Part shown: positions 2,880 to 59,846 of the stretch, in pieces
How positions within the stretch are numbered: position 1 is the first letter of the stretch
Layout of the letters: each line of letters starts with the position of its first letter
Assembly: GCA_041493915.1 (NCBI GenBank)
Contig: JBGPZT010000002.1
Location: 1-61,486, forward strand
Direction: 5' to 3'
DNA from: Candidatus Limnocylindria bacterium
Lineage (GTDB): Bacteria > Chloroflexota > Limnocylindria > P2-11E
DNA length: 61,486 bases
The notes under the pieces: model-generated
Told to the model about the DNA's origin: nothing
Databases searched by the model: none
The model's input: only the letters and a program-made list of their open reading frames with translations
Position numbers and translations under genes: made by a program

Positions 2880-4265
2880 CTACAAAGACACGCGAACGGC
2901 CTCGACGGCCTGCTGATAGACCTGCTGGTGCGGGCTCTCGGCGCCGCGCGCGCTCTTGCGCCGCTCGCCGACCACGGTCTTGATGAAGGCCTCGACCACC
3001 ACCGGGTTGAACTGGGTGCCGCTGTTGGCCCGCAGCTCGCGCAGCGCCTGCTTGGCGCTCATCGCCGGACGGTAGGGCCGGCTCGCCGTCATGGCCTGGT
3101 AGGCGTCGGCGACGGCGATGATCTGCGCCGCCAGTGGGATCCTGTCCGCGCGCAGACCCTGCGGGTAGCCGGTGCCGTCGAAGCGCTCGTGGTGGCTGAG
3201 CACGATCGGCCGGATGCGCTCGAGCATCGGCACGTTCGAGAGCAGGTTGGCGCCGATGACCGGGTGCGCCTTGACCTCGGCCCACTCGCGCGCGTCGAGA
3301 GCGCTGGGCTTGCGCAGCAGGTGCTCGGGCACCCCGATGGTGCCGATGTCGTGGAAGAGCGCCCCGAGCTTGATCGCCGAGAGCTCGTCGTCCGAGCACC
3401 CCAGGTGGGTGGCGACCTGAACCGCATAGAACATCGTCTGCGCCGCGCCCTTGGCGGTGCGCGACTCCTTGGCTTCCAGAGCGCCGATGAGCGCGCCGAT
3501 CACGGACAGATGCGATTCCTCCAGGCGGTCGTTGGTGCGCCGCAGCATGTCGTTGACCGACTGAAGCTCCTCGTTGCGCGCGCGGACCTCGCTGCTCTTG
3601 GCCATGTACAGCTTGAAGCTGTACCAGGCGACGGCCAGGGGTAGGGTGAAGACCACCACGCCGAAGACCCCGAGAGCCTGCGAGGCGAGCGCCAGCGCGG
3701 CGCCCTGCGCCGCGGTGGCCAGGAAGTTCACCGGCATCCAGCTGTAGTTGGTGCGCCAGACCGCCGTGAAGCTCTGGCGCTCGCTGATCGCGATGACCAG
3801 CGCGGTCGTGGCGGTGTTCACCAGGAAGTACGCCGCGGCCGAGACCGCGACGGCAACGAGAGTGAGGGCGATCTCACCGGGCGGCACCTGCCCGCCCGCC
3901 AGGCGGTACACGATGCCGCCGACGAAGGCCGACGTCGTAAGGGACCCGGCGTTGAAGAGGGCTTTGAGCAGGGGCTTGCGCCGCGGGGTGAAGGCATTCA
4001 CGCCGGCCTGGAACAGGCTGACGAGGACCGCGACCTCGGTGCCGTACAGGACGTAGCTGGCGATGACCGCGGCGAAGCTGATGGAGATGGCGCTGGAGCG
4101 GAAGAGGAACACCGGCATGCGCTGGGCGGCGGCGGCCAGACCGATGAGGATCGCCAGCATCAGGGGGTCGACGCGCTCGAAGCTCACCGTGCGCAGCGAC
4201 TGCGCCAGAGCGGCGGCACCGAGCGCCGCAACGAAGAGGACGTAGACGCGAAGTCCTTGCCTCAT
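2880..4265 (-). CDS. HD-GYP domain c-di-GMP phosphodiesterase-type protein with a polytopic membrane N-terminal domain
   Basis: Carries HDIGTIGVP ... HHERFDGTGYPQGL (HD plus GYP), preceded by about 7 hydrophobic segments and a coiled linker. The start is placed at MRQGLRVYVLF (4265), forming an ATGA overlap with the subtilase stop. The longer ORF-track N-terminus (to 4436) is the antisense reading of the subtilase repeat. Confidence 0.85.
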   Translation of the reverse strand: MRQGLRVYVLFVAALGAAALAQSLRTVSFERVDPLMLAILIGLAAAAQRMPVFLFRSSAISISFAAVIASYVLYGTEVAVLVSLFQAGVNAFTPRRKPLLKALFNAGSLTTSAFVGGIVYRLAGGQVPPGEIALTLVAVAVSAAAYFLVNTATTALVIAISERQSFTAVWRTNYSWMPVNFLATAAQGAALALASQALGVFGVVVFTLPLAVAWYSFKLYMAKSSEVRARNEELQSVNDMLRRTNDRLEESHLSVIGALIGALEAKESRTAKGAAQTMFYAVQVATHLGCSDDELSAIKLGALFHDIGTIGVPEHLLRKPSALDAREWAEVKAHPVIGANLLSNVPMLERIRPIVLSHHERFDGTGYPQGLRADRIPLAAQIIAVADAYQAMTASRPYRPAMSAKQALRELRANSGTQFNPVVVEAFIKTVVGERRKSARGAESPHQQVYQQAVEAVRVSL

Positions 4266-5845
4266 CGTGGTGCGCCGTCCCACAGCGGATCTTGCTCCCG
4301 ACTTACGGTCTCCCACATGACGCCCTCCCAGCTGACGCTTTCCCATGTCACGCTCTCCCAGCTCACGCCTTCCCACGTCACGGCTTCCCAGGTCACGCCT
4401 TCCCATGTCACGCCATCCCAGGTGACGCCTTCCCATGTCGTGCCGTTACCCGCGACGCCGCTCTTCACGAGCGTCTGCATGAGCAACCGCGACGGGAGCA
4501 GATTCGTGTTCACGTCACGCCGGCTCGCCGTCAGCGCCTTTATCGCGTCGACGGCCTCCCGCGGCGTTCCCGCGAGATCGCGGCCGGACCCGATGACGGC
4601 GCCTTTGACCTTCGTCGGCGAGTAGTCCCGGTGTTGGCTGAGCACGAGCGCCGCGACGCCCGCGACCATCGCGCTCGACACCGACGTGCCCGACATCCGC
4701 AGGTAGAGCGTCGGATCGAAGCTCCGGCTCGACGTCTCGTGCCTGTCGCCGCCCTTGTCCATCGCCTCCGCCTTCGCGTCGCGCGAAGTAGCGGCGTTGG
4801 CGCGAAGTGACACGACTCGGCGGCCGGGCGCGAGCACGTCCGGCTTCGCGAAGCGGTCGAGTGTCAGACCGCGGCTGGAGAAGGGCGACTCGCGGTCGTC
4901 CTGCTCCGCGAGCGTGCCCTGGTCGTCGAAGCTCCCGACCGTGATCACGAACGGGTCGGCGCCGGGGGTCGAGACCTTACGTGCGCCCGGACCGTCGTTG
5001 CCCGCTGCGGCGACGACCGCGACGCCCGAGAACCACGCGGCCTCCGCGAGCGCCGCGAGCAGATCCGCGTGATACGAGGAGGTCTGCGTCGTGCCGATCG
5101 AGAGGTTGAGGACGCCGATGCCGAACTGCTTGCGATGCTTGAGCAGCCAATCGAACGCCGCGACCACGTCGTGCAAGCGCCCGTTGCCGTTCTTGTCCAG
5201 CACGCGCAGGTCGACGAGACGCGCGTCCGGAGCGACACCGCGGAACGTCTCGCCGTGACCGGCGATGACGCCTGCCAGGTGCGTACCGTGGCCGGCCGGA
5301 TCGAGCGACGTCGCGTTGTCCGCGACGAAGTTCATCCGGGCGACGACCTTGCCCGCCGGAAGATCGGGGTGCTTACCGATGCCGCTGTCCATGAGCGCGA
5401 CGACGACGCCGGCTCCGGTCGAGCGGGACCACGCGCTCGGGGCGTGGATCGCCGCGTTGCCGACGCTGACCGCACTCGAGTTGTCGCCGATGCGGTCGAG
5501 ATCGCCCGGGCCGCCGCCCGTCGCGACGACGGTCGCGTCGGTGGTGGCACGCAGCACCGAGCGATCGGTGCCGATGTTCAAGAGAGCGGCGTCACTCACG
5601 CGGGCACTCACGATGTCGACGCCGTCGAAGACGGTGACGTCGGTGGAGCCGGCGGTGATCAGGTCCCTGGCCACGGTCCATGCCGTGCCCATGGAGACCT
5701 GGAGAAGAGCAACGTCACCGGCGTGAAGGGCGGGATCGACGTCGACGCGCGCGACGGAGGCGCGGCCAGTCCACGCGGTCCCGATGAGCAGCGCGAAGAT
5801 CAAGATCGGCGTGATCGATCGTCCAACGGCGCGCTGCTTCCCCAC
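4262..5845 (-). CDS. Secreted S8 subtilisin-family serine peptidase with a C-terminal V[TS]WEx pentapeptide repeat tail
   Basis: The catalytic triad contexts are ALMDSGIGKHPDL (Asp), HGTHLAGVIAG (His) and MSGTSVSSAMVAGVAAL (Ser). It has an N-terminal signal/TM. The tail is TTWEGVTWDGVTWEGVTWEAVTWEGVSWESVTWESVSWEGVMWET. Confidence 0.9.
   Translation of the reverse strand: MGKQRAVGRSITPILIFALLIGTAWTGRASVARVDVDPALHAGDVALLQVSMGTAWTVARDLITAGSTDVTVFDGVDIVSARVSDAALLNIGTDRSVLRATTDATVVATGGGPGDLDRIGDNSSAVSVGNAAIHAPSAWSRSTGAGVVVALMDSGIGKHPDLPAGKVVARMNFVADNATSLDPAGHGTHLAGVIAGHGETFRGVAPDARLVDLRVLDKNGNGRLHDVVAAFDWLLKHRKQFGIGVLNLSIGTTQTSSYHADLLAALAEAAWFSGVAVVAAAGNDGPGARKVSTPGADPFVITVGSFDDQGTLAEQDDRESPFSSRGLTLDRFAKPDVLAPGRRVVSLRANAATSRDAKAEAMDKGGDRHETSSRSFDPTLYLRMSGTSVSSAMVAGVAALVLSQHRDYSPTKVKGAVIGSGRDLAGTPREAVDAIKALTASRRDVNTNLLPSRLLMQTLVKSGVAGNGTTWEGVTWDGVTWEGVTWEAVTWEGVSWESVTWESVSWEGVMWETVSREQDPLWDGAPR
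4311..4445 (-). repeat. Nine tandem 15-bp coding repeats (plus-strand unit tcccaNgtcacgcct, encoding x-V-T/S-W-E)
   Basis: Counted directly: units start at 4311, 4326, 4341, 4356, 4371, 4386, 4401, 4416 and 4431. Differences between units fall mostly at codon third positions. Confidence 0.9.
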
Positions 5846-9861: not shown

Positions 9862-10311
9862 CTATTTCCCGAACCAGGACCGCCGCAGGTCTTCGAGCGC
9901 CTGCTGGAGCCGGTCGACCAGACCCGGTATGCCCGTCGGCGCGATCTCGACCTCTCCGGTGCGCGAGAGTCGCAGCTCGTCGCCCGCCCTCACCGCCGCC
10001 CTCACCGCCGCCCGGTCCGCCGTCACGGTGAACACGACACGGTCCTGTTCGGCGACGACGCTCGCGACCCGCAGGCGTCCATCGGGCAGCGCCTTGATGA
10101 CCGCTTTCAGATCGGCGTCGCTCCGCATGTCGGCCTGAGGCTGCGGCGCGATCCGCGCGACGGTCTTGCCGACCTCGTCGAAGAAGGTCGCCGGACCGCG
10201 AACGACGCTACCGATCAGCGCGGCGAAAAGACCCACGGCGAGCAGCACCGCGAACATTCCGATCACGAACTGCAGCGCCCACAGCGGGAGGAACGTGCCT
10301 GCGCGCTTCAC
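9862..10311 (-). CDS. Hypothetical membrane-anchored protein
   Basis: 149 aa with an N-terminal TM pair and a soluble domain. Coding-like composition but no family recognised. Confidence 0.4.
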   Translation of the reverse strand: MKRAGTFLPLWALQFVIGMFAVLLAVGLFAALIGSVVRGPATFFDEVGKTVARIAPQPQADMRSDADLKAVIKALPDGRLRVASVVAEQDRVVFTVTADRAAVRAAVRAGDELRLSRTGEVEIAPTGIPGLVDRLQQALEDLRRSWFGK

Positions 10312-14026: not shown

Positions 14027-14098
14027 GGCGGCTACGGGGTTTCGAACCCCGACTGAGTGGTCCACAACCACTAGTGCTGCCATTACACAATAGCCGCC
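14027..14098 (-). tRNA. tRNA-His (anticodon GTG) with encoded G-1
   Basis: Folded by hand. G-1 plus acceptor GCGGCTA/TAGCCGC plus discriminator C. D arm GTGTAATGGCAGCAC. Anticodon stem AGTGG/CCACT with loop TTGTGGA. Variable loop CAGT. T arm CGGGG-TTCGAAA-CCCCG. CCA is not encoded. Confidence 0.85.
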
Positions 14099-47810: not shown

Positions 47811-47987
47811 CCTCGCTATTCAACGCCACGCGGCGCTCACGCGGACTCTTAGATAGGAGGAATCCCCCGAGCGAGCGACCGGGCTGTCGCTGATCGCCGA
47901 TCGTGTAGGGATTCGCGACACTGCTCTCCTACCAAACTCACACCAAGGTCTGATGGCGCAGTGCGACCAAAACGCGAGGCTATCCGC

Positions 47988-50900
47988 ATGCCAACCAGGG
48001 TCCTTGTAGCTGACGACCACCTCGCGATCCGCGAGGGCATCCGCTCGCTGCTTGCGGCGGATGACGAGCTCCTCGTCGTCGGCGAGGCCGCCGACGGCGT
48101 GCAGGCCAGCCGGATGGCCCTGGAGCTCAAGCCGGATCTGATCCTTCTGGACAACTCGATGCCGGGCAAGACCGGTCTCGAGGTCGCGCGGGAGCTGAGG
48201 CCGCTCCTGCCGGACGCCTCGATCGTCTTCCTGACGCTGGACCCAGGCATCCGCGACCTCGCCCTGGCTGTCGGCGCGGTCGCCCACATCTCGAAGGACA
48301 CCGCACCTCAGGAGACTCTCCGCATCCTGCGTCAGGTGGCGCAGCAGCGCGCCAAGGCGACGCCCGCCGAACTCACCGCGATCGAGCACACGCTTGCCGA
48401 CACGCTCGTCGCCGATCACCTGTTCACGAACGACCAGATGGAGCGTCTCGTCGCCGCGCGCGGGGCACGCGAGACTCTCTCGGCCGCGCTGATCCGCACC
48501 GCGCTCATTCCGGACATGCGCGCAGCGCAGGCTCTTTCGCGCGTCAGTGGTCGTCCGCTCGTCACGCTCGCACCTCGAGAGGAGAGCGGCGGGATCAAGT
48601 TCGGCCGCCGGTCCGTCAAGATCAGCGATCCGATCGATACGACCGTCGTGGCCCAGCTCGCGAAACGACTCTGCGAACAGCGCCGCGTCGTCCTCGTCAA
48701 GTTCGGTCGCAGCGAGGCGACGCTCGCCATGGCCGACCCGCTTGACGAACAGACCCCACGCGACGTAAAGGCCTTGCTCGGGAACGTGCCGGTGACGGTC
48801 GTGACCGCGAGCGCCGGCGAGATCGCCGCTGCGATCGCGCGTGGCTTCGCCACCTCCGCTCCGAAGGTCGCGCCGGTCGCCCTGATCGCGGGCTCCGCGC
48901 CGCGCGAGCGGACGCGCCGTCCACTTCTCCTCGTCGCCGCGGTCCTCGCGGCGCTCCTTCTCTTCGTGGCCGGATCCGCTGTGATCCTCGGGCCGGCCGC
49001 GAGCGCGGTCCAGGCGCGCGCGAATCTCACGATCTTCCAAGGCAATGTCGACGTCCGTCCCGCGGGTGGCGCATACGCGCCGGCCGGGACGGGCTCTGTC
49101 CTGCGTCAGGGCGACAGCGTTCGTACTAAGTCAGGGGCGAATGCCGCGCTCACCTTCTTCGATGGGTCCGTCGTCGTGCTCGAGTCGGGCACCGAGCTCG
49201 AGGTCGTCGAGCTTCGCGCTCTCTCGAGCGGCGCGATCGCCGCGACGCTGCGTCAAACGACTGGCACGACGTGGCACGTCGTCAGCCACCAGCCTTCGAC
49301 GAGCGCCCGTTATGCCATGACGACACCCACCTCGACCGCAAGCGTCACCGGTACCGCGTTCAGCGTGCGTGTCGATGCCACTGGCGCGACGACGATCAGC
49401 ACCACCGACGGTGCGGTCGACCTTCGCGGCGTGGACAGCGCCTCAAACGAGCTCGTCTCCGTCACCGCGGGCAACATGAGCGTCGTCGCGTCGAAGGGCA
49501 CCGCTCCTTCGGCCGCCAGCGCATTCGGGCAGCCTACGGTCACCTTCGTGCTCGAGGACTCACGTAACGCGGTCATCGTCGATCGCATGGGCCGCTCCGC
49601 TGGTGTCAGCGACGGCACGCTCGTCCGCTACATCCCCGGTTCGACGGTGCAGCGTGTCGACTCTGATGTCGTGGTCACGATCCCGAACACGGATGGCGAT
49701 CGCTTCGCTTCGGTCGTGTCACCGCTCGATCGCAGCGAGCAGACCGTGAGCGTCGTCGCCGAAGCGCACAGCTCGAGTGGCACGGTCGTGGGTAACGTCG
49801 CGGACACGCGCGCGGTCGTGGATGGCGTCGCGGTCGGCGGAGTTCGTGTTTCGACGAAGGAAGTTGTCGCCCTGAGCGACGAAGTCGTGCACACGCTTCC
49901 TGCGCCGGTCGCCGCGAGCGTGCCCTCCAACAATGGTTTCGATCTCTTCGTGCTGATCCGTCGGGAGCCCAGCGTCGCCGGTAACGCCGGCCCCGCCGGT
50001 CCCGCGGGCACACCAGGTCCCGCTGGCCCTCCCGGTCCTCAGGGTCCCACTGGCACGGCTGGCGTCGATGGCGCTCCGGGCGCGCAGGGTCCTGCCGGCG
50101 CGAGCGGTGCTCCAGGTTCCTTAGGCGCGAACGGTCTCAACGGGGCCGCTGGCCCGGCCGGTCCAGCGGGCGCACAGGGTCCCGCCGGTCCTGCCGGCGC
50201 GGGCGCCGCTGGTCCTGCTGGTCCTGCTGGTTCTGCTGGTGCCGCTGGCGCGAGTGGTGCGAACGGTGTTGATGGCGCGACTGGTCCCATCGGTGCGACC
50301 GGTGCGACCGGTGCAGCTGGCGCGAATGGTGTTGATGGTGCGACCGGAGCGACTGGTGCAACTGGTCCTACCGGCGCGGTCGGCGCGACCGGTGCGACCG
50401 GTGCAGCTGGCGCGAATGGTGTTGATGGTGCGACCGGTGCTGATGGAGCAACTGGTCCTACCGGCGCGGTCGGTCCTCAGGGTCCGATCGGTCCTGTCGG
50501 GCCCGTAGGTCCTACCGGCGCAACCGGTGCAACGGGCGCGACCGGTGCAACTGGTGCGACCGGCGTGGCTGGCGCGAACGGTGTTGATGGTGCGACCGGT
50601 GCCACTGGTGCTGATGGAGCAACTGGTCCTACTGGCGCGGTCGGTCCGCAGGGTCCGATCGGTCCTACCGGTGCAACGGGTGCGACCGGTCCCACCGGTG
50701 CGACCGGTGCGGCTGGAGCGAACGGTCTTGATGGTGCGACCGGAGCGACTGGTGCGACTGGTCCTACTGGCGCGGTCGGTCCGCAGGGTCCGATCGGTCC
50801 TGTCGGGCCCGTAGGTCCTACTGGTGCAACTGGTGCAACTGGTGCAACTGGTGCAACTGGTGCAACCGGTGCGGCTGGAGCGAACGGTGTTGATGGCGCG

Positions 50901-53177
50901 ACCGGTGCAACGGGCGCGACCGGTTCCACAGGTGCGACCGGTGCAGCTGGAACGAACGGTATTGATGGCGCGACCGGTGCAACGGGCGCGACCGGTTCCA
51001 CAGGTGCAACCGGTGCGACTGGCGCGACCGGCGCGACCGGCGCGACCGGCGCAACAGGCGCCACTGGTGCTGATGGAGCAACTGGTCCTACCGGCGCGGT
51101 CGGTGCTCAGGGTCCAATCGGTCCTACAGGTGCGACCGGCGCAACAGGTGCGACCGGTGCGACTGGCGCGAGCGGTGTTGATGGCGCAACTGGTGCAGCT
51201 GGTGCAACTGGTCCTACTGGTGCTACGGGCGCGACCGGAACCACCGGAGCAACTGGCCCGACCGGTGCGACTGGCGCTGATGGCGCGGTCGGTCCTCAGG
51301 GTCCGATCGGTCCACTCGGCCCCGTTGGTCCTACAGGTCCTACAGGTGCCACTGGCCCGACCGGCGCGAACGGTCCCACTGGTCCCACTGGTCCCACTGG
51401 CGCGAACGGCGCGACCGGTGCAACTGGTCCGACGGGCGCGAACGGCGCCACGGGTGCCACTGGTCCGACGGGCGCGAACGGCGCCACGGGTGCCACTGGT
51501 CCGACGGGCGCGAACGGCGCGACCGGTGCAACTGGTCCGACGGGCGCGAATGGCGTGACAGGCGCGACTGGCCCGACCGGCGCGAACGGTGCCACGGGTG
51601 CCACTGGCCCGACTGGCGCGACCGGCGCGACAGGTGCTACCGGGTTCGGCGCGCAGATTCAGAACAGCACCGTGAACGTGGCCCAGGAGCCGATCGTGAA
51701 CTTCACCGGCGGACTGCAAGCGGTCGACAACCCGGGTAACACGCGGACCGACGTGTCGATCGCGGCGACGATCTCGGGTGACAAGACCTTCACTGGCAAC
51801 ACGACCTTCACCGGCAATGTCTCGCAGACCGGGTCGGGTACGTTCGACACCGCCACCGGCAACGTGAACCTCAACGGCAACACCGCCGTCGCCAGTGGCA
51901 AGACCTTCACCGCAGGTGCCGGCACGACGACCGGCACGGCTGTGAACGTCGCGACCGGAAACGCCCTCGCCGGTGGCACCGCTCTCAACGTCGACACGGG
52001 TACATCCGCCTTCACTGGCAACGCGGTGAACATCGCGAGCACGGGGAACTTCACGGGCACGCTCGTGAACCTCGCGGCGAACACCACGACGGCCGGCACG
52101 GTGCTCGGCATCAGTGCGACGTCGCTGACCACCGGATCGGTGATCAACGCCAACCTCGGATCCGCTGTCTACACGAACAACCTCGGCGCGATCCGTCTGA
52201 CCGCGAACTCCGCCTCGAGCGGCACGCTCCTCGCGGTCTCCGGTACGACGCTCGGCGCGAACAACGGAACCGCGGCAAGCTTCGCGACCGGCACGCCGAC
52301 CGGTGTCGAGGACGTGACAAGCAGGGCCGTTCGCGTCGCGCTCGGCACAGTCGGAAACGGCTACTACGCGAATGCCGCGACCGGCTACACCGGCAACTTC
52401 CTCGAGCTCCAGGTGAACGGCGCGAACGTCTTCACCGTCTCCGGGACGAACGTGAACACGACCGCAAACTTCACGCTGAGCGGCGCGGCGACCTTCACGA
52501 CCGGCACGGGTGCGGTGACGCTGAACGGCAACACGACGATCAGCGGCGCGAACACCTTCACCACCGGCACGGGTGCCGTCACGATCGGCGGCCCCACCAC
52601 TCACAACGGCAGCCTCGCAGTCAGCGGCGCGAACACGTTCACGATGGCCACCGGCGCCGTCAACCTGGGCACGGGTGCCCTGACGATCGGCGGCGCCACG
52701 ACTCATAACAACAGCCTCACCGTCAGCGGCGCGAATACCTTCACAGTCGGCACTGGCCTCACGAGCCTCGGCGGCGGCGCCACGATCACGGGTGGCAACC
52801 TCAACCTCGGCAACAATACGAGCACCGCCCACATCATCGCGGCCCAGGCGACCGGCCCGGCACTGACGAACGGCACGAACGCTACGTGCACCTTCCCGGC
52901 GGGCGCGAACGCGAACTCCGACACGTCCGGTGAGGTTCAGTTCGTCATGGGTGGGGCGGGCACGGCCAACGCCGCGATCTGCACGCTGACCTTCCAAACG
53001 GCCTTCGCCGCAGCGCCCACGGCCATCATGTCGTGGTCGAACAGTGCGGCGGCGTTGATCCCCGAAGCGACCAGGCCGTTCGTCACGACGACCACGACCA
53101 CGATGATCATCACGAACAACACGACTGGGCTGGCCGCCGGCACCTACAAGATCTTCTACACAGTCATCGGCCGGTAG
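47988..53177 (+). CDS. Giant multidomain protein: receiver, GspE_N/MshEN-like, TM, FecR, Ig-like region, collagen-like Gly-X-Y, T/G/N-rich repeats and a globular C-terminus
   Basis: The ATG at 47988 has GAGG 8 nt upstream. REC: [21 protein letters not shown]. GspE_N-like: [19 protein letters not shown]...[42 protein letters not shown]: [22 protein letters not shown]. FecR: [36 protein letters not shown]. It has about 185 GXY triplets, then repeats such as [13 protein letters not shown]. Confidence 0.9.
49980..51650 (+). repeat. Collagen-like Gly-X-Y coding array (about 1.67 kb) with nested higher-order repeats
   Basis: Uninterrupted GGN-NNN-NNN periodicity except one extra Gly-Ala ([14 protein letters not shown]). 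A 53-bp stretch is identical at 50294-50346 and 50384-50436. The module GPTGAVG(P/A)QGPIGP recurs 5 times. Confidence 0.9.
51390..51641 (+). repeat. Seven tandem 36-bp units encoding [12 protein letters not shown] (last unit degenerate)
   Basis: Units start at 51390, 51426, 51462, 51498, 51534, 51570 and 51606. Units 2 and 3 are identical, and the others differ at a few mostly synonymous sites. Confidence 0.85.
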
Positions 53178-55728: not shown

Positions 55729-57813
55729 GTGCCCACGGCGATGAACGCCGTCGCCCTCGTGCCCGAAGTCGCGTACCCGGTCCCGAACGTCAACGACGAC
55801 GCCCAACACGTCGCGTTCGTGCGGCGCGCCGCGGACGGGTGGTCGCGTGGAGAGAACGTGATCGATCTGTGGGTCCCGGAGTTCGAGCTCGGAGTCCCTC
55901 AGTTCCTCGACTACCAGCACCTGCCACATGTCGCGGTCGTTCTCCTCGGCCGCCTCACGGGGGGCTCGGTCGATCTGCGCACGCTCTTCGACCTAGTCCG
56001 CTACGCACTCCTGCTCGGCTTCCCGCTGACCGTGTTCTGGTCGATGCGGACGATGGGCTTCACGACCGTCGCCAGCGCGATCGCGGCGGCCGCGAGCTCG
56101 TTGCTTTCCGGAGACCATCGCTATGGCTTCGAGTACGACAGCTACGTCTGGCGCGGGTTCGGCGTGTTCACGCAGCTCTTCGCGATGCACCTCTCGTTCA
56201 TCGCCCTCGCGACGCTGCACCGCGTCGCGAACAAGGGGACCGGGATCGTGGCGGCCGCGCTCGCCTGCAGCGCGCTCGCGCTCTCACACCTTCTCTACGC
56301 GTACATGCTGGCGATCACCGCGATCGTGCTGCTGTTCTTCGGCATGACGCGCGCAACTGCCGCCGCCCGCGTCGGGCGCTTCGCCGTCGTGGGCGTCGTG
56401 TCCGCGGTCGTGACGTCCTACATGTGGCTGCCATTCTTCATGCAGGCGGCGTACGTCAACGTGACGCCCTACCTCGATCCCGCCAAATACGACTCGTTCG
56501 GCGCGGGCCCGATCCTGTCGTGGCTGTTCTCCGGCGACCTGTTCGATCACGGCCGTCTCCCGGTCCTCTCGCTTCTGTTGGCGGCGGGCGTGATCTGCAG
56601 CGTGGTCACGCGCGCACGGCTCCCGCTGTTCGCTTCATGTCTCTTCGGGCTCTGGCTCGTCCTGTATTTCGGCCGACCGACGCTCGGTCCGTTGATAGAC
56701 CTTCTGCCGCTGCACGACAGCCTGTTCCTGCATCGGCTGGTGGGCGGCGTCGACGTCTTCGCGATCCTCCTGATGGGCATCGGTGGCGCGTGGCTGTGGG
56801 ACCTGCTGCGAGCGTCGGTGTCACGCCGCCGGCTGGTCGCCATCGGAGGCGCGAGCCTGCTGCTGTTCGCTCCGGCCATCGCCGAGCGCTGGTCCTACTA
56901 CGCGCAGAACGCGGAGTGGATGCGCCAGACGCAAGCCGCTCTCGACGCCGACGCCGACGCGCGAACGATCCTGGCCGCGCTCGGTCGGCAGCCGCAGGGC
57001 CGTGTCTATGCGGGCCTCCGAACCAACTGGGGCCAGACGCTCGACTTCGGCATCCCCTTCAACTCTGTCCGCTTTTACAACCTTCTCGCCCACTACGAGC
57101 TCGATGCGGTCGCTCCACCGAACCAGAGTCTGTCGCTGAACGCGGACCTGCTTTGGGAGTTCAACGATCAGGACCTCTCGCACTACCGCTTGTTCAACGT
57201 CGACTACGTGATCGCACCGCCCACCGTGACGTTCCCACCCGAGCTCCGCGTGCTCGCGACCACGCCCAAGTACGTCCTCTACGCGGCGCCGGGACGCGGC
57301 TATGCCGAGTACGCCGCGATCACGCACAGCGAGCCGGCGTCAACCCCGCAGGACCTGTTCGCCCGCGAGCTCGCGTGGCTGCGGAGCGGTGACGCCGCGC
57401 GCTGGACCTTCACCCGCTACGACTACCACACGACCGGGCCGGTCGATGTGACCGTCCCGATCGCCGATTGCGCTGGCGGGCGCATTTCGTATGAGCGGGT
57501 CCAGCCGGCGCAGTTCGAGGTCCTCGCCCGCTGCGATGCCGCCTCAGCGATGGTGTTGAAGGTCACCTATCACCCGAACTGGCATGTAACGGTCGACGGT
57601 GCCGATGTCTCCACGTTCATGGTGTCGCCGAGCTATCTCGCCTTCGCGCTCCCGGCCGGCGAGCATTTCATCGTCGCCGAGTACCGATCGACGCCGATAA
57701 AGGCGCCCCTGCTCGCCCTCGGCGCGCTCATGCTGGCCGCGGCCGTCGTTGCCGGCCCGGCCCGCCGGCGCTTAGCCGGTTCGGGCGTCTCGCGACCCCT
57801 GCAGGCGCAGTAG
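55729..57813 (+). CDS. Large polytopic membrane protein with an extracytoplasmic C-terminal domain and a terminal TM (possible GT-C-fold glycosyltransferase, YfhO/PMT-like topology)
   Basis: About 11 hydrophobic segments in the first ~430 aa, a ~230-aa soluble region, and a final TM IKAPLLALGALMLAAAVVAG. The function is inferred from topology only. Confidence 0.5.
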   Translation: MPTAMNAVALVPEVAYPVPNVNDDAQHVAFVRRAADGWSRGENVIDLWVPEFELGVPQFLDYQHLPHVAVVLLGRLTGGSVDLRTLFDLVRYALLLGFPLTVFWSMRTMGFTTVASAIAAAASSLLSGDHRYGFEYDSYVWRGFGVFTQLFAMHLSFIALATLHRVANKGTGIVAAALACSALALSHLLYAYMLAITAIVLLFFGMTRATAAARVGRFAVVGVVSAVVTSYMWLPFFMQAAYVNVTPYLDPAKYDSFGAGPILSWLFSGDLFDHGRLPVLSLLLAAGVICSVVTRARLPLFASCLFGLWLVLYFGRPTLGPLIDLLPLHDSLFLHRLVGGVDVFAILLMGIGGAWLWDLLRASVSRRRLVAIGGASLLLFAPAIAERWSYYAQNAEWMRQTQAALDADADARTILAALGRQPQGRVYAGLRTNWGQTLDFGIPFNSVRFYNLLAHYELDAVAPPNQSLSLNADLLWEFNDQDLSHYRLFNVDYVIAPPTVTFPPELRVLATTPKYVLYAAPGRGYAEYAAITHSEPASTPQDLFARELAWLRSGDAARWTFTRYDYHTTGPVDVTVPIADCAGGRISYERVQPAQFEVLARCDAASAMVLKVTYHPNWHVTVDGADVSTFMVSPSYLAFALPAGEHFIVAEYRSTPIKAPLLALGALMLAAAVVAGPARRRLAGSGVSRPLQAQ

Positions 57814-57904
57814 CCCCATCGGCGCGTCGCGCCCGGACCAGCACCCCCCGCGCCGGCCCGCGCCTCGTGGCTACATTGACCACAAGCCAGACCGAGGGGT
57901 CCAG

Positions 57905-57995
57905 GCGAGACCCGACGAAACGGCAAACCCGTCGCGAGGCGGGGACGCAAAGCCTCCGGACTCGATAGCGAGTTAGCGGGGTTCCCGAAACGAGG
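57905..57995 (+). promoter_or_regulatory. c-di-GMP-I (GEMM-I) riboswitch aptamer in the 5' leader of the peptidase gene
   Basis: GGCAAACC-CGTC-GCGA-GGCG-GGGACGCAAAGCCTCCGG...TAGCGGGGTTCCCGA matches the Vc2-type core GGCAAACC-AUUC-GAAA-GAGU-GGGACGCAAAGCCUCCGG...UAGCGGGGUUACCGA. That includes a same-length P2 hairpin with a GNRA loop. The SD GAGGA and ATG 58003 follow directly. Confidence 0.8.
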
Positions 57996-58002
57996 ATGAG
58001 CA

Positions 58003-59172
58003 ATGAAACGCCTTCTGACCGTCGCGGGCGCCGGCATGCTGGCGCTGCTCGCCCTGGTGTTCGTGTGGCATGGGCAAGCAAGCGCGAGTGACAGCCCGAC
58101 GTGCGCTCCGACCACCGGATTCATCCCTCAGTTCTGCGTCAACGTGCCCGTCGGCATGATCGCGCGGCGCGAGACCACCGTTCGTCTGGCGACAGTTCTC
58201 ACGGCGCACGCCGAGGTCCGCGTCGAGGCAGGCGTGCCGGCAACGGAGATCATCCGCCTCGCATCGAGCGTCGATAGCGCGATCGCCCGGGTAGAGCGCG
58301 TCTTCGACCGCCCGTTCCCGACCAAGCCGCGCATCCTCGTCTTCGCGACGAGCGCGAGCTTCGCGCGCGGTACGCAGGACCTCTTCGGCTACTCGCCGGA
58401 GACCGCAGCGATGGTCGCGGCCTCGTACGGCGGCGTGTTCGATCCGCAGACGCTCACGATCGCGGTGGGGTGGCAGTTCACCACCCGCGCGAACCTACCC
58501 GATCTCCTCGCGCATGAGCTCACGCACCTCGCGACACGCGAGATCGTCGGCCAAGACGCCATCCTTCCTGCATGGTTCGAGGAAGGGCTCGCGGCGCAGA
58601 TCGAGGCCGGCGACGCTGGAATCAACAGCGACGCGCAGCTCGCGGCGCGTTCGCTCCTCGCGAACACCCCGCGCACGCTCGATACGATCGCGACGCTGGC
58701 TCAGTGGCACCGCGCGTACGCCGAGATCGGCGTCGCCCTCTACGCCGTCGCGGCCGAGACCGTCAGCGTCATGGAAACCCAGATCGGTCGCGACGAGGTG
58801 TTCGCGGTCCTCGCCGAGGTCGGACGCGGCGCGCGCTTCGAGGATGCCTACCGGGCGCGTGCCGGCGAGGGTCCGGGTGAGTTCATCGCCCGCTTCACCG
58901 GCGATCTCGCGGTCCATCCGAGCGTCGTGGTCGGCACTGTGGCCGACAGCAGCGGCAACCTCCGGTGGACGCTTGTGGGATTCGCGCCGAATAGCGACGT
59001 GCACGTCACGATCCGCGGGAAGAGGTACGACCTGGCGTACGGGGTCCGCACCGACGGGATCGGGATGTACCGCGGGACCTTCGGATCGACGGCCGCTCTC
59101 GGCACCTACACGCTGACGGCCCAGACGGCGGCGGCGAGCGCGACGGCGACGATCGACACCGCGTCGCGCTAG
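58003..59172 (+). CDS. Secreted zinc metallopeptidase, Peptidase_MA-like (HExxH ... EEG)
   Basis: Has the signal peptide MKRLLTVAGAGMLALLALVFV, LLAHELTHLATREIVG, a downstream PAWFEEGLAAQ, and a C-terminal beta-rich domain. Confidence 0.7.
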   Translation: MKRLLTVAGAGMLALLALVFVWHGQASASDSPTCAPTTGFIPQFCVNVPVGMIARRETTVRLATVLTAHAEVRVEAGVPATEIIRLASSVDSAIARVERVFDRPFPTKPRILVFATSASFARGTQDLFGYSPETAAMVAASYGGVFDPQTLTIAVGWQFTTRANLPDLLAHELTHLATREIVGQDAILPAWFEEGLAAQIEAGDAGINSDAQLAARSLLANTPRTLDTIATLAQWHRAYAEIGVALYAVAAETVSVMETQIGRDEVFAVLAEVGRGARFEDAYRARAGEGPGEFIARFTGDLAVHPSVVVGTVADSSGNLRWTLVGFAPNSDVHVTIRGKRYDLAYGVRTDGIGMYRGTFGSTAALGTYTLTAQTAAASATATIDTASR

Positions 59173-59846
59173 CGGGCGGAGTCCTTCTCGAGCATCCCGC
59201 GGTTATGCACGAACAGTGCGGCCTGCGTGCGATCGGTGAGCTCGAGCTTGCTGAAGATGTTGGAGATGTGCGTCTTCACGGTGCGCTCGGTGATGCCGAG
59301 CTGCGCGCCGATCTCCTTGTTCGCCCGTCCGCTCGCCACGAGCCGCAGCACCTCGCGTTCGCGGGGAGTGAGATCCGAGTACACATCGGTCTCGCTCGGG
59401 GCATTGCCGCGGAGCTGCCCGAACTCATCAAGCACGCGGCGCGCGACCGAGGGATAGATCAGCGAGAAGCCGTCCGCCACCGTGCGGATCGAGTTCGTGA
59501 GCTGCGTCGCGGTGACCTCTTTCAGCAGATAACCCGACGCGCCCGCCCGGATGGACGAGAAGACGAGGTCGTCCTCGTCGTAGTTCGTGAGCACGATGAC
59601 GCGGGCCGACGGCACGTAGTTGCGCACCCGGCGTGTCGCCGTGACGCCGTCCCAGTCGCCCATGTTGATGTCCATGAGCACGACGTCCGGTAGGAGCTCT
59701 TGCGCGAGCTCCAGCGCCGCGTGGCCGTCGCCCGCCTCGCCGACGATCTCGATGTCCGGTTCGGTCTCGAGGATCGTTCGCAGACCGCTCCGCACGACGG
59801 CGTGATCGTCCACGATGAGGATGCGGATGCGGCGCTTCTCGTTCAT
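59169..59846 (-). CDS. NarL/LuxR-family two-component response regulator
   Basis: The receiver has ILIVDDHAVV and VVLMDINMGDWDG. The HTH is LTPREREVLRLVASGRANKEIGAQLGITERTVKTHI. Its start overlaps the kinase stop. Confidence 0.9.
   Translation of the reverse strand: MNEKRRIRILIVDDHAVVRSGLRTILETEPDIEIVGEAGDGHAALELAQELLPDVVLMDINMGDWDGVTATRRVRNYVPSARVIVLTNYDEDDLVFSSIRAGASGYLLKEVTATQLTNSIRTVADGFSLIYPSVARRVLDEFGQLRGNAPSETDVYSDLTPREREVLRLVASGRANKEIGAQLGITERTVKTHISNIFSKLELTDRTQAALFVHNRGMLEKDSAR

Follow-up and report, generated by a model that had tools for sequence, protein, structure and literature searches.

A predicted class-I c-di-GMP riboswitch lies against the ribosome-binding site of a putatively exported gluzincin gene beside a collagen-like locus in Limnocylindria

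A 61,486-nucleotide (nt) stretch of a Candidatus Limnocylindria genome (GCA_041493915.1, contig JBGPZT010000002.1, positions 1 to 61,486; the window) carries a gene for a HExxH peptidase, whose leader an earlier note had read as a riboswitch for cyclic di-GMP (c-di-GMP). We found that this leader contains a full-length match to the c-di-GMP-I (GEMM-I) aptamer, directly upstream of the Shine-Dalgarno (SD) sequence. The explanation that fits the locus best as a whole, and that we consider likely, is that a promoter of its own drives the gene and that the aptamer, lying against the SD, would act on translation of an exported envelope gluzincin.

The whole 61.5-kb window was searched with cmscan against all 4227 Rfam families at the curated gathering thresholds, which returned two matches, the aptamer and one tRNA. 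The aptamer matched RF01051 (c-di-GMP-I, GEMM-I) at 57912-57989 on the forward strand with 66.5 bits (E 7.7e-11), exceeding the gathering score of 35 by 31 bits, and the match was untruncated, spanning model positions 1-87 of 87. A permissive scan of the window (E <= 0.5) added nothing, including no match to c-di-GMP-II (RF01786), which the earlier note had proposed as a control. The sequence blocks that this note had quoted from the leader are present in the window exactly as written, and its view of the leader as a canonical GEMM-I aptamer is borne out by the RF01051 match together with canonical nucleotides in the ligand site. The RNA features are as follows.

57912-57989, forward strand: c-di-GMP-I (GEMM-I) aptamer (RF01051, 66.5 bits; pairing examined on 42 related leaders)
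C57916-G57987 and G57917-C57986, forward strand: inner pairs of P1, from the consensus alignment
G57914-C57991 and C57913-G57992, forward strand: outer pairs of P1, beyond a 1x3 internal loop, invariant CG/CG in 42 leaders
57928-57933 with 57938-57943, forward strand: P2 (P1b of Vc2), 6 base pairs (bp), CCCGUC/GGCGGG, closed by a GCGA tetraloop
57951-57964 with 57969-57983, forward strand: P3 (P2 of Vc2), a 13-bp bulged hairpin
14027-14097, reverse strand: tRNA gene (RF00005, 54.8 bits), the sole other Rfam match in the window

Residue equivalences were obtained by aligning the window to the RF01051 and RF03167 consensus sequences, and the roles of G20, C92 and other residues in the Vibrio cholerae aptamer Vc2 were taken from the literature (PMC11705072). 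The ligand-site equivalents are canonical, with G20 corresponding to G57922, A47 to A57949 and C92 to C57985, and the inter-helix pair C44-G83 is kept as C57946-G57976. A47 is a ligand-contact nucleotide in Vc2 crystal structures. The P1 layout of the RF03167 model, in which a CG/CG helix is followed by an internal loop and then an outer pair, matches the window as well. Across 42 distinct related leaders, the aptamer structure had 93% of its cells paired, compared with 29-44% in slid controls. Compensatory-change statistics were weak in the clade (4 pairs with double changes versus 2.0 expected), and the minimum-free-energy fold of the 226-nt leader, a GC-rich sequence, was no more stable than its shuffles (z = 0.24) and did not reproduce the aptamer. 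On every in-silico feature, namely the score, the ligand-site nucleotides, the two hairpins with a GNRA loop and the sense position in a 5' untranslated region (UTR), the RNA is a member of RF01051.

We examined how widely the leader is kept. Genome and metagenome scans returned 57 loci, and three longer contigs (L011-L013) were added by protein identity; the leader count was restricted to the 45 loci whose protein identity was 68% or more and whose 5' flank was usable, some of which are duplicates. In 40 of these 45 Limnocylindria (Chloroflexota) loci, the orthologous gene has a near-identical GEMM-I leader.

The leader is 189 nt long (57814-58002), as first described, with the upstream open reading frame (ORF) ending at 57813 and the ATG at 58003. 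Its ribosome-binding site is the following.

57992-57996, forward strand: SD sequence GAGGA, overlapping the 3' strand of outer P1 (C57991, G57992; 57991-57996)

The aptamer ends at 57989, leaving a gap of 2 nt to the SD and of 13 nt to the ATG, and G57992 serves both outer P1, as its last base, and the SD, as its first. ACGAGG and both outer CG/CG pairs of P1 are invariant in all 42 leaders. An intrinsic-terminator scan of 57500-59400 found no terminator-like site. Since the aptamer ends 2 nt before the SD, P1 reaches into the SD and no terminator was found in that region, the riboswitch most likely controls translation initiation, and the translational control suggested in the earlier note is still the best reading. 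Two further pairings were considered and rejected. An extended P1, formed between upstream CC and the GG of the SD, fails in the orthologues, where the 5' side of the pairing carries C, A, G or U with no compensating change, and a candidate anti-SD element, CCUCG at 57863-57867, lies upstream of the predicted transcription start.

Two elements precede the aptamer.

57872-57877, forward strand: -10-like hexamer TACATT (TANNNT type), proposed from conservation, with a predicted start at about 57884-57886
57886-57906, forward strand: 5'-terminal hairpin GCC-A-GACC-GAGG-GGUC-CA-GGC, upstream of the aptamer

TAGATT, TACATT or TAAATT is conserved at the hexamer position in the riboswitch-bearing orthologous leaders. 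The hairpin folds in almost every peptidase-type leader, directly 3' of the conserved hexamer, and shows compensatory changes (GAUC/GAUC in L009, GGCC/GGUC in L005); the second type of leader, found before SLT lytic transglycosylase genes of sister genomes, has a non-homologous hairpin at the equivalent place. It is probably a stabiliser of the mRNA 5' end. Five of the 45 loci (L012, L026, L030, L034 and L035) have lost the riboswitch, with hairpin, aptamer and SD gone as one block.

L012 at about 10000-10120, and L026, L030, L034 and L035 at about 1330-1510: deletion alleles, block loss of hairpin, aptamer and SD

What remains in these alleles is TACGTT-TGACCGCG-ATG or CACATT-GACACTT-GTG, which places the -10-like hexamer 7-8 nt before the start codon, and their transcripts apparently look like leaderless mRNAs. 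Because the hexamer is conserved, a covarying hairpin follows it directly and the hexamer stands 7-8 nt from the start in the deletion alleles, transcription probably starts from a promoter within the 189-nt spacer rather than reaching the gene by read-through from the fibre operon upstream. The resulting 5' UTR would be about 120 nt long.

Taken together, transcription from the spacer promoter would yield a 5' UTR in which the hairpin and the aptamer are followed by the SD and the ATG. Binding of c-di-GMP at the three-helix junction would stabilise P1, whose 3' strand (C57986, G57987...C57991, G57992) would run into the first SD base, and the ligand-bound aptamer, directly against the ribosome-binding site, would change translation initiation. 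Our best guess is that high c-di-GMP represses (an OFF switch), with possible secondary effects on mRNA decay. We lean towards this sign because P1 overlaps the SD, because a Vc2 construct with a shorter P1a bound ligand only partially and folded incompletely (PMC11705072), and because in Clostridioides difficile most class-I riboswitches are OFF switches, that of the metalloprotease gene zmpI among them (PMC6200980).

Six points weigh against this reading. The J1/2 linker, from P1 to G20, has 4 nt (AAAC) where the consensus has 5. Because the aptamer is almost invariant within the clade, covariation provides no independent test, and the support for the aptamer comes from the Rfam model. A consensus sigma-70 scan of 57500-59400 found no promoter, and a -35 element is not recognisable there. 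The peptidase scores 29.5 bits (E 8e-7) for Pfam PF13485 (Peptidase_MA_2), just below the gathering score of that family (32.4). The accessibility of the SD was compared between partition-function models of 45 leaders with and without a forced aptamer; forcing the aptamer lowered the mean from 0.45 to 0.38 in the 32 peptidase-type leaders, with a wide spread, and a second mean from the same modelling shifted from 0.33 to 0.28, again with a large spread. The modelled shift is thus small and varies widely between orthologues, so the OFF direction is weakly supported by it. Finally, pairing of the 5' strand of P3 (CCUC...CGG) with the SD region could support the opposite sign.

That opposite sign, the same riboswitch acting as an ON switch, is rather unlikely in our judgement. 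The ligand-free RNA would pair the P3 5' strand (CCUC 57953-57956, CGG 57957-57959), or downstream coding sequence, with the SD region, and c-di-GMP would lock P3 and P1 and free the SD. The peptidase, together with the SLT enzyme in sister genomes, would then be co-produced with a c-di-GMP-activated surface fibre, opening the wall for its assembly or processing the fibre. Such a scheme fits the giant collagen-like protein of the locus, which has an MshEN domain of c-di-GMP-binding type, suggesting that the locus is active at high c-di-GMP, and it fits the resemblance of SLT and peptidase to dedicated envelope-remodelling enzymes, which are usually co-expressed with the apparatus they serve. 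The CCUC/GAGG and CGG/CCG complementarity is present in the sequence, and positively acting class-I riboswitches exist, for example Cdi-1-1 (PMC6200980). However, the alternative helix has only 7 bp and a 4-nt bulge and would compete with the much stronger 13-bp P3, the unconstrained ensembles already form most aptamer pairs (mean probability 0.59), and forcing the aptamer does not raise SD accessibility.

We also considered whether the RNA belongs to RF03167 (c-di-GMP-I-GGC) or to another specificity variant and recognises a ligand other than c-di-GMP. RF03167 scores 58.7 bits at the window locus, 0.3 below its gathering score of 59, and is the family reported there under E-value ranking; it is also reported for five orthologous leaders at 59.4-60.3 bits, which pass that score. 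The nucleotide that defines RF03167, read from the Rfam consensus, is a conserved G in GACGCGAA that replaces A47. At this diagnostic site the window carries A (GACGCAAA), as do all 42 related leaders, and membership in RF03167 was rejected on that ground. RF01051 also outscores RF03167 in bits, and the high RF03167 score is probably due only to the short P3 (second hairpin) of its model and to the inclusion of P1. Riboswitches for c-AMP-GMP (GEMM-Ib) are said, in 2015 work by Kellenberger and by Nelson that PMC7266159 cites, to carry A at the G20 equivalent. In the window (G57922) and throughout the 42 leaders this nucleotide is G, and C stands at the C92 equivalent of the window; the c-AMP-GMP class was rejected accordingly. 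A ligand other than c-di-GMP is therefore very improbable. The Rfam label at 57912-57990 and in orthologous leaders changes between RF01051 and RF03167 with the ranking criterion (bits or E-value), which is likely to lead automated pipelines to mis-annotate such leaders.

It is scarcely credible that the aptamer is a decaying relic, or that read-through from the upstream operon drives most expression so that the riboswitch has a minor effect. In favour of this view, five related loci have lost the whole leader and kept the gene, and the more distant orthologues L007 and L008 (51% identity), like remote homologues (27-33% identity), have no riboswitch. Against it, each loss is a clean deletion by which a leaderless start is rebuilt, not decay by point mutation, and the aptamer is near-invariant where present while the flanking hairpin loop, the tip of P3 and the promoter surroundings vary, a pattern of constraint that indicates purifying selection on the aptamer.

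The gene under the leader encodes the following protein.

58003-59172, forward strand: coding sequence of a 389-amino-acid MA-clan (gluzincin) zinc metallopeptidase, predicted to be secreted (ORF, Pfam, AlphaFold2 (AF2) and Foldseek)
58003-58086, forward strand: signal-peptide-like N-terminus with MKR, a hydrophobic helix and ASA at residues 26-28, then Cys34-x10-Cys45
58513-58584, forward strand: zinc/catalytic motif H171-E-L-T-H175...x18...E194 (WFEEGLA), from an alignment of 41 homologues
58909-59169, forward strand: C-terminal seven-strand beta-sandwich (immunoglobulin (Ig)-like), residues ~303-389, from the AF2 model with a predicted local distance difference test (pLDDT) score above 90

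The HELTH...WFEEGLA motif noted at the outset is present, and the motif, the AF2 model and the Foldseek results agree with the assignment of a gluzincin-type HExxH peptidase with a signal-peptide-like N-terminus. Across 41 homologues, with identities as low as 21%, H171, E172, H175 and E194 never vary, nor do P189, W191 and G195, and the HExxH-x18-E motif aligns to the HExxH-x18-E/WLNEG of M1 aminopeptidases. A26, S27, A28, C34 and C45 are invariant in 19 orthologues. We infer secretion, and the cleavage site, from the pattern of MKR, hydrophobic stretch and ASA. A search of a large protein database returned 226 homologues, all from Chloroflexota/Limnocylindria metagenomes, and those with names come from Chloroflexota or Candidatus Limnocylindria soil metagenome-assembled genomes. 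The best 120 of the 226 are 70-100% identical to the window protein (100% being the window's own cluster), and 119 of these 120 have PF13485 in the precomputed Pfam column. The family is small, with 254 clusters of 50% identity at E <= 1e-3.

The AF2 model (pLDDT 88, predicted template-modelling score (pTM) 0.80) comprises an N-terminal hydrophobic helix (residues 2-23), a low-confidence stretch (23-53) with Cys34 and Cys45, an alpha/beta catalytic domain and the C-terminal beta-sandwich, which has weak Foldseek matches to Ig-like and FN3-like domains of adhesins. The segment ASAxDxPxC-x10-C that follows the signal peptide (58003-58182, residues 29-60) has a pLDDT below 50 and recurs in the SLT proteins; it may serve in targeting or docking, or may be a propeptide. 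Foldseek matched the model with probability 1.0 to M1 aminopeptidases (IRAP), the M9 collagenases ColT, ColH and ColG, the Grimontia collagenase and M30 lugdulysin, but with template-modelling (TM) scores of only 0.32-0.42 and identities of 10-16%. A sequence search of the PDB gave only marginal M1 motif matches (E about 0.02), and a search of NCBIfam with the peptidase gave only flagellinolysin, far below threshold (29.7 bits versus a cutoff of 205). Membership in the M9 collagenases was rejected, as no M9 chain appeared in the PDB profile search (E <= 1) and the model contains no activator domain; the link to M9 is at fold level only, within the peptidase domain (TM 0.33-0.42, 11-16% identity). 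The modelled collagenase fold matches are suggestive, but they do not discriminate between substrates. The peptidase is a gluzincin without a close solved or characterised relative.

The peptidase gene directly follows the conserved collagen-like locus, in the window and by synteny in L011-L013, as the earlier note had described for the window.

47961-53177, forward strand: giant protein of 1738 amino acids with an N-terminal REC domain, MshEN, FecR and long collagen repeats (Pfam Collagen, 251 bits)
55729-57813, forward strand: YfhO-like membrane protein of 694 amino acids, with sub-threshold matches to YfhO, DUF6541 and PTPS_related
59169-59846, reverse strand: LuxR-type response regulator, converging on the peptidase gene, syntenic in L008 and L011-L013
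59843-61426, reverse strand: GAF-HisKA_3 histidine kinase, converging on the peptidase gene, syntenic in L008 and L011-L013
2880-4436, reverse strand: HD-GYP protein with MASE9 and HD_5 (122.7 bits)

The gene order in L011-L013 runs from the giant protein through small ORFs, a TPR protein and the YfhO-like protein to the peptidase, in some cases SLT, and the convergent response regulator and histidine kinase, and the order from the YfhO-like protein through the peptidase to the two regulators is kept in L008, which is 51% identical. This conserved order supports, at the level of gene arrangement, a functional tie of the peptidase to the locus. The peptidase and response-regulator genes overlap at their ends, the former with its stop codon at 59170-59172 and the latter ending at 59169. 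Both c-di-GMP-related proteins named in the first description were recovered, the HD-GYP protein as listed and the MshEN-like domain of the giant protein as PF05157 at 38 bits. The REC-MshEN-FecR-collagen architecture also occurs in the giant protein of L011. It is an unusual combination, mixing domain types that are usually cytoplasmic with types usually found at the cell surface. The YfhO-like protein weakly resembles the Streptococcus glycosyltransferases PgfM1 and PgfM2 and may glycosylate a surface protein of the locus. Beside the HD-GYP-type gene, the ORF at 4262-5845 on the reverse strand encodes a subtilase (Peptidase_S8, 155 bits).

In many sister genomes the peptidase gene is followed directly by a gene for an SLT lytic transglycosylase; in the window, no SLT gene follows the peptidase (59172). 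The SLT gene has its own GEMM-I copy in three cases by Rfam and in 14 loci when a regex census is counted.

L011:11306-12113, L005:7296-7370 and L012:11410-11484: examples of GEMM-I in SLT leaders, downstream of the peptidase

Among the best 120 of the 226 homologues, 16 have SLT fused to the C-terminus of the peptidase. Where SLT is a separate protein, its first ~60 residues (signal peptide and Cys-x10-Cys) are 52% identical to those of the peptidase, and at the DNA level the two genes are homologous over 234 nt with 74% identity, a stretch that begins shortly upstream of the aptamer and reaches about codon 45. The riboswitch and the N-terminal module are shared by two enzyme genes; therefore, the cassette has been duplicated onto both. 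In SLT-type aptamers the first hairpin has a U-U mismatch at its base (AAAUCCGCC...GGCGGUGAC; for example L011:11316-11379), in contrast to C-G in the peptidase type, and the SLT-type copies still score 57-61 bits for RF01051.

The earlier note had proposed that the peptidase trims, releases or remodels the collagen-like fibre. Because a peptidoglycan-cleaving SLT pairs with the peptidase, either fused or with its own GEMM-I, cell-wall or envelope remodelling appears at least as likely as fibre trimming, and it could serve fibre assembly or release. The product would be exported by its N-terminal signal sequence, its gluzincin and Ig-like domains would act on the cell envelope or surface, and it would work with the neighbouring collagen-like/YfhO-like locus and, in sister genomes, also with the riboswitch-controlled lytic transglycosylase. 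A more specific proposal, unlikely as it stands, is that GEMM-I, signal peptide and Cys-x10-Cys form a portable cassette on peptidase and SLT, through which c-di-GMP coordinates two-enzyme wall opening or processing for a c-di-GMP-sensing giant REC-MshEN-FecR-collagen surface fibre. If this were true, c-di-GMP would control the fibre protein through MshEN and its envelope-remodelling enzymes through RNA.

We compared the locus with known systems. Vc2 lies upstream of tfoY in V. cholerae and is the type example of RF01051. Like Vc2, the window RNA is a two-hairpin aptamer closed by a short P1, its first hairpin capped by a GNRA tetraloop, and it has the G20, A47 and C92 nucleotides and the C44-G83 pair; both RNAs belong to 5' UTRs of genes with links to surface and lifestyle functions. 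The window RNA differs from Vc2 in its tetraloop (GCGA, not GAAA), in a short second hairpin without an obvious 11-nt receptor, in a J1/2 of 4 nt, not 5, in the conserved 5'-terminal hairpin before the aptamer, in a minimal expression platform with the SD 2 nt after the aptamer, and in its host, a soil member of the Chloroflexota (Limnocylindria).

In C. difficile, the class-I riboswitch Cdi-1-12 represses zmpI, which encodes the secreted zinc metalloprotease ZmpI (PPEP-1, CD2830), and ZmpI cleaves the neighbouring c-di-GMP-induced collagen-binding adhesin CD2831 (PMC6200980). There, as predicted for the window, a class-I riboswitch is directly upstream of a secreted HExxH metalloprotease gene, beside a gene for a collagen-linked surface protein. 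By analogy this is the closest functional precedent; the resemblance is in the regulatory logic proposed in the earlier note and not in ancestry. PPEP-1/M34 chains were absent from the PDB sequence and fold searches with the window peptidase, and the two proteases are not detectably related. The C. difficile class-I riboswitches act on transcript abundance, whereas the window leader has no terminator and control is probably translational. The neighbours differ too, a sortase-anchored adhesin cleaved by the protease in C. difficile and the giant REC-MshEN-FecR-collagen-repeat protein in the window.

Among MA-clan gluzincins (PF13485, and M1, M9 and M30 by structure), the window peptidase shares the HExxH-x18-E zinc site, WxxEG as in M1, and a modelled thermolysin-like alpha/beta catalytic fold. 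It has neither the N- nor the C-terminal domain of M1 and no M9 activator domain, and its family has no characterised member. Against NCBIfam, the sister-genome SLT best matches the flagellar assembly lytic transglycosylase, with 49.7 bits, well below the cutoff. Like the dedicated lytic transglycosylases of envelope machines, this SLT ends a locus for a large surface structure; in contrast to them, no secretion or pilus machine was identified in the locus, and the link consists of gene order and fusion only.

Literature searches returned nothing specific on GEMM-I in Chloroflexi or before lytic transglycosylases. A GEMM-I riboswitch before a secreted metalloprotease gene has already been studied in C. 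difficile, and the present result extends known biology with a mechanism that is not new. Its distinctive points are the under-studied host phylum, the minimal translational platform, the presence/absence alleles and the duplicated riboswitch-signal-peptide cassette beside a collagen-like locus. The natural alleles, with either a riboswitch leader or an apparently leaderless start, offer ready-made controls, the deletion alleles being the unregulated ones. The analysis places a predicted c-di-GMP-sensing RNA, with a named output gene, in Limnocylindria, a lineage of Chloroflexota that is abundant in soil and represented here by metagenome assemblies alone. That output gene is linked to the conserved locus of a very large collagen-like protein with c-di-GMP-related domains, and it may offer an entry to the function, assembly and release of that protein.

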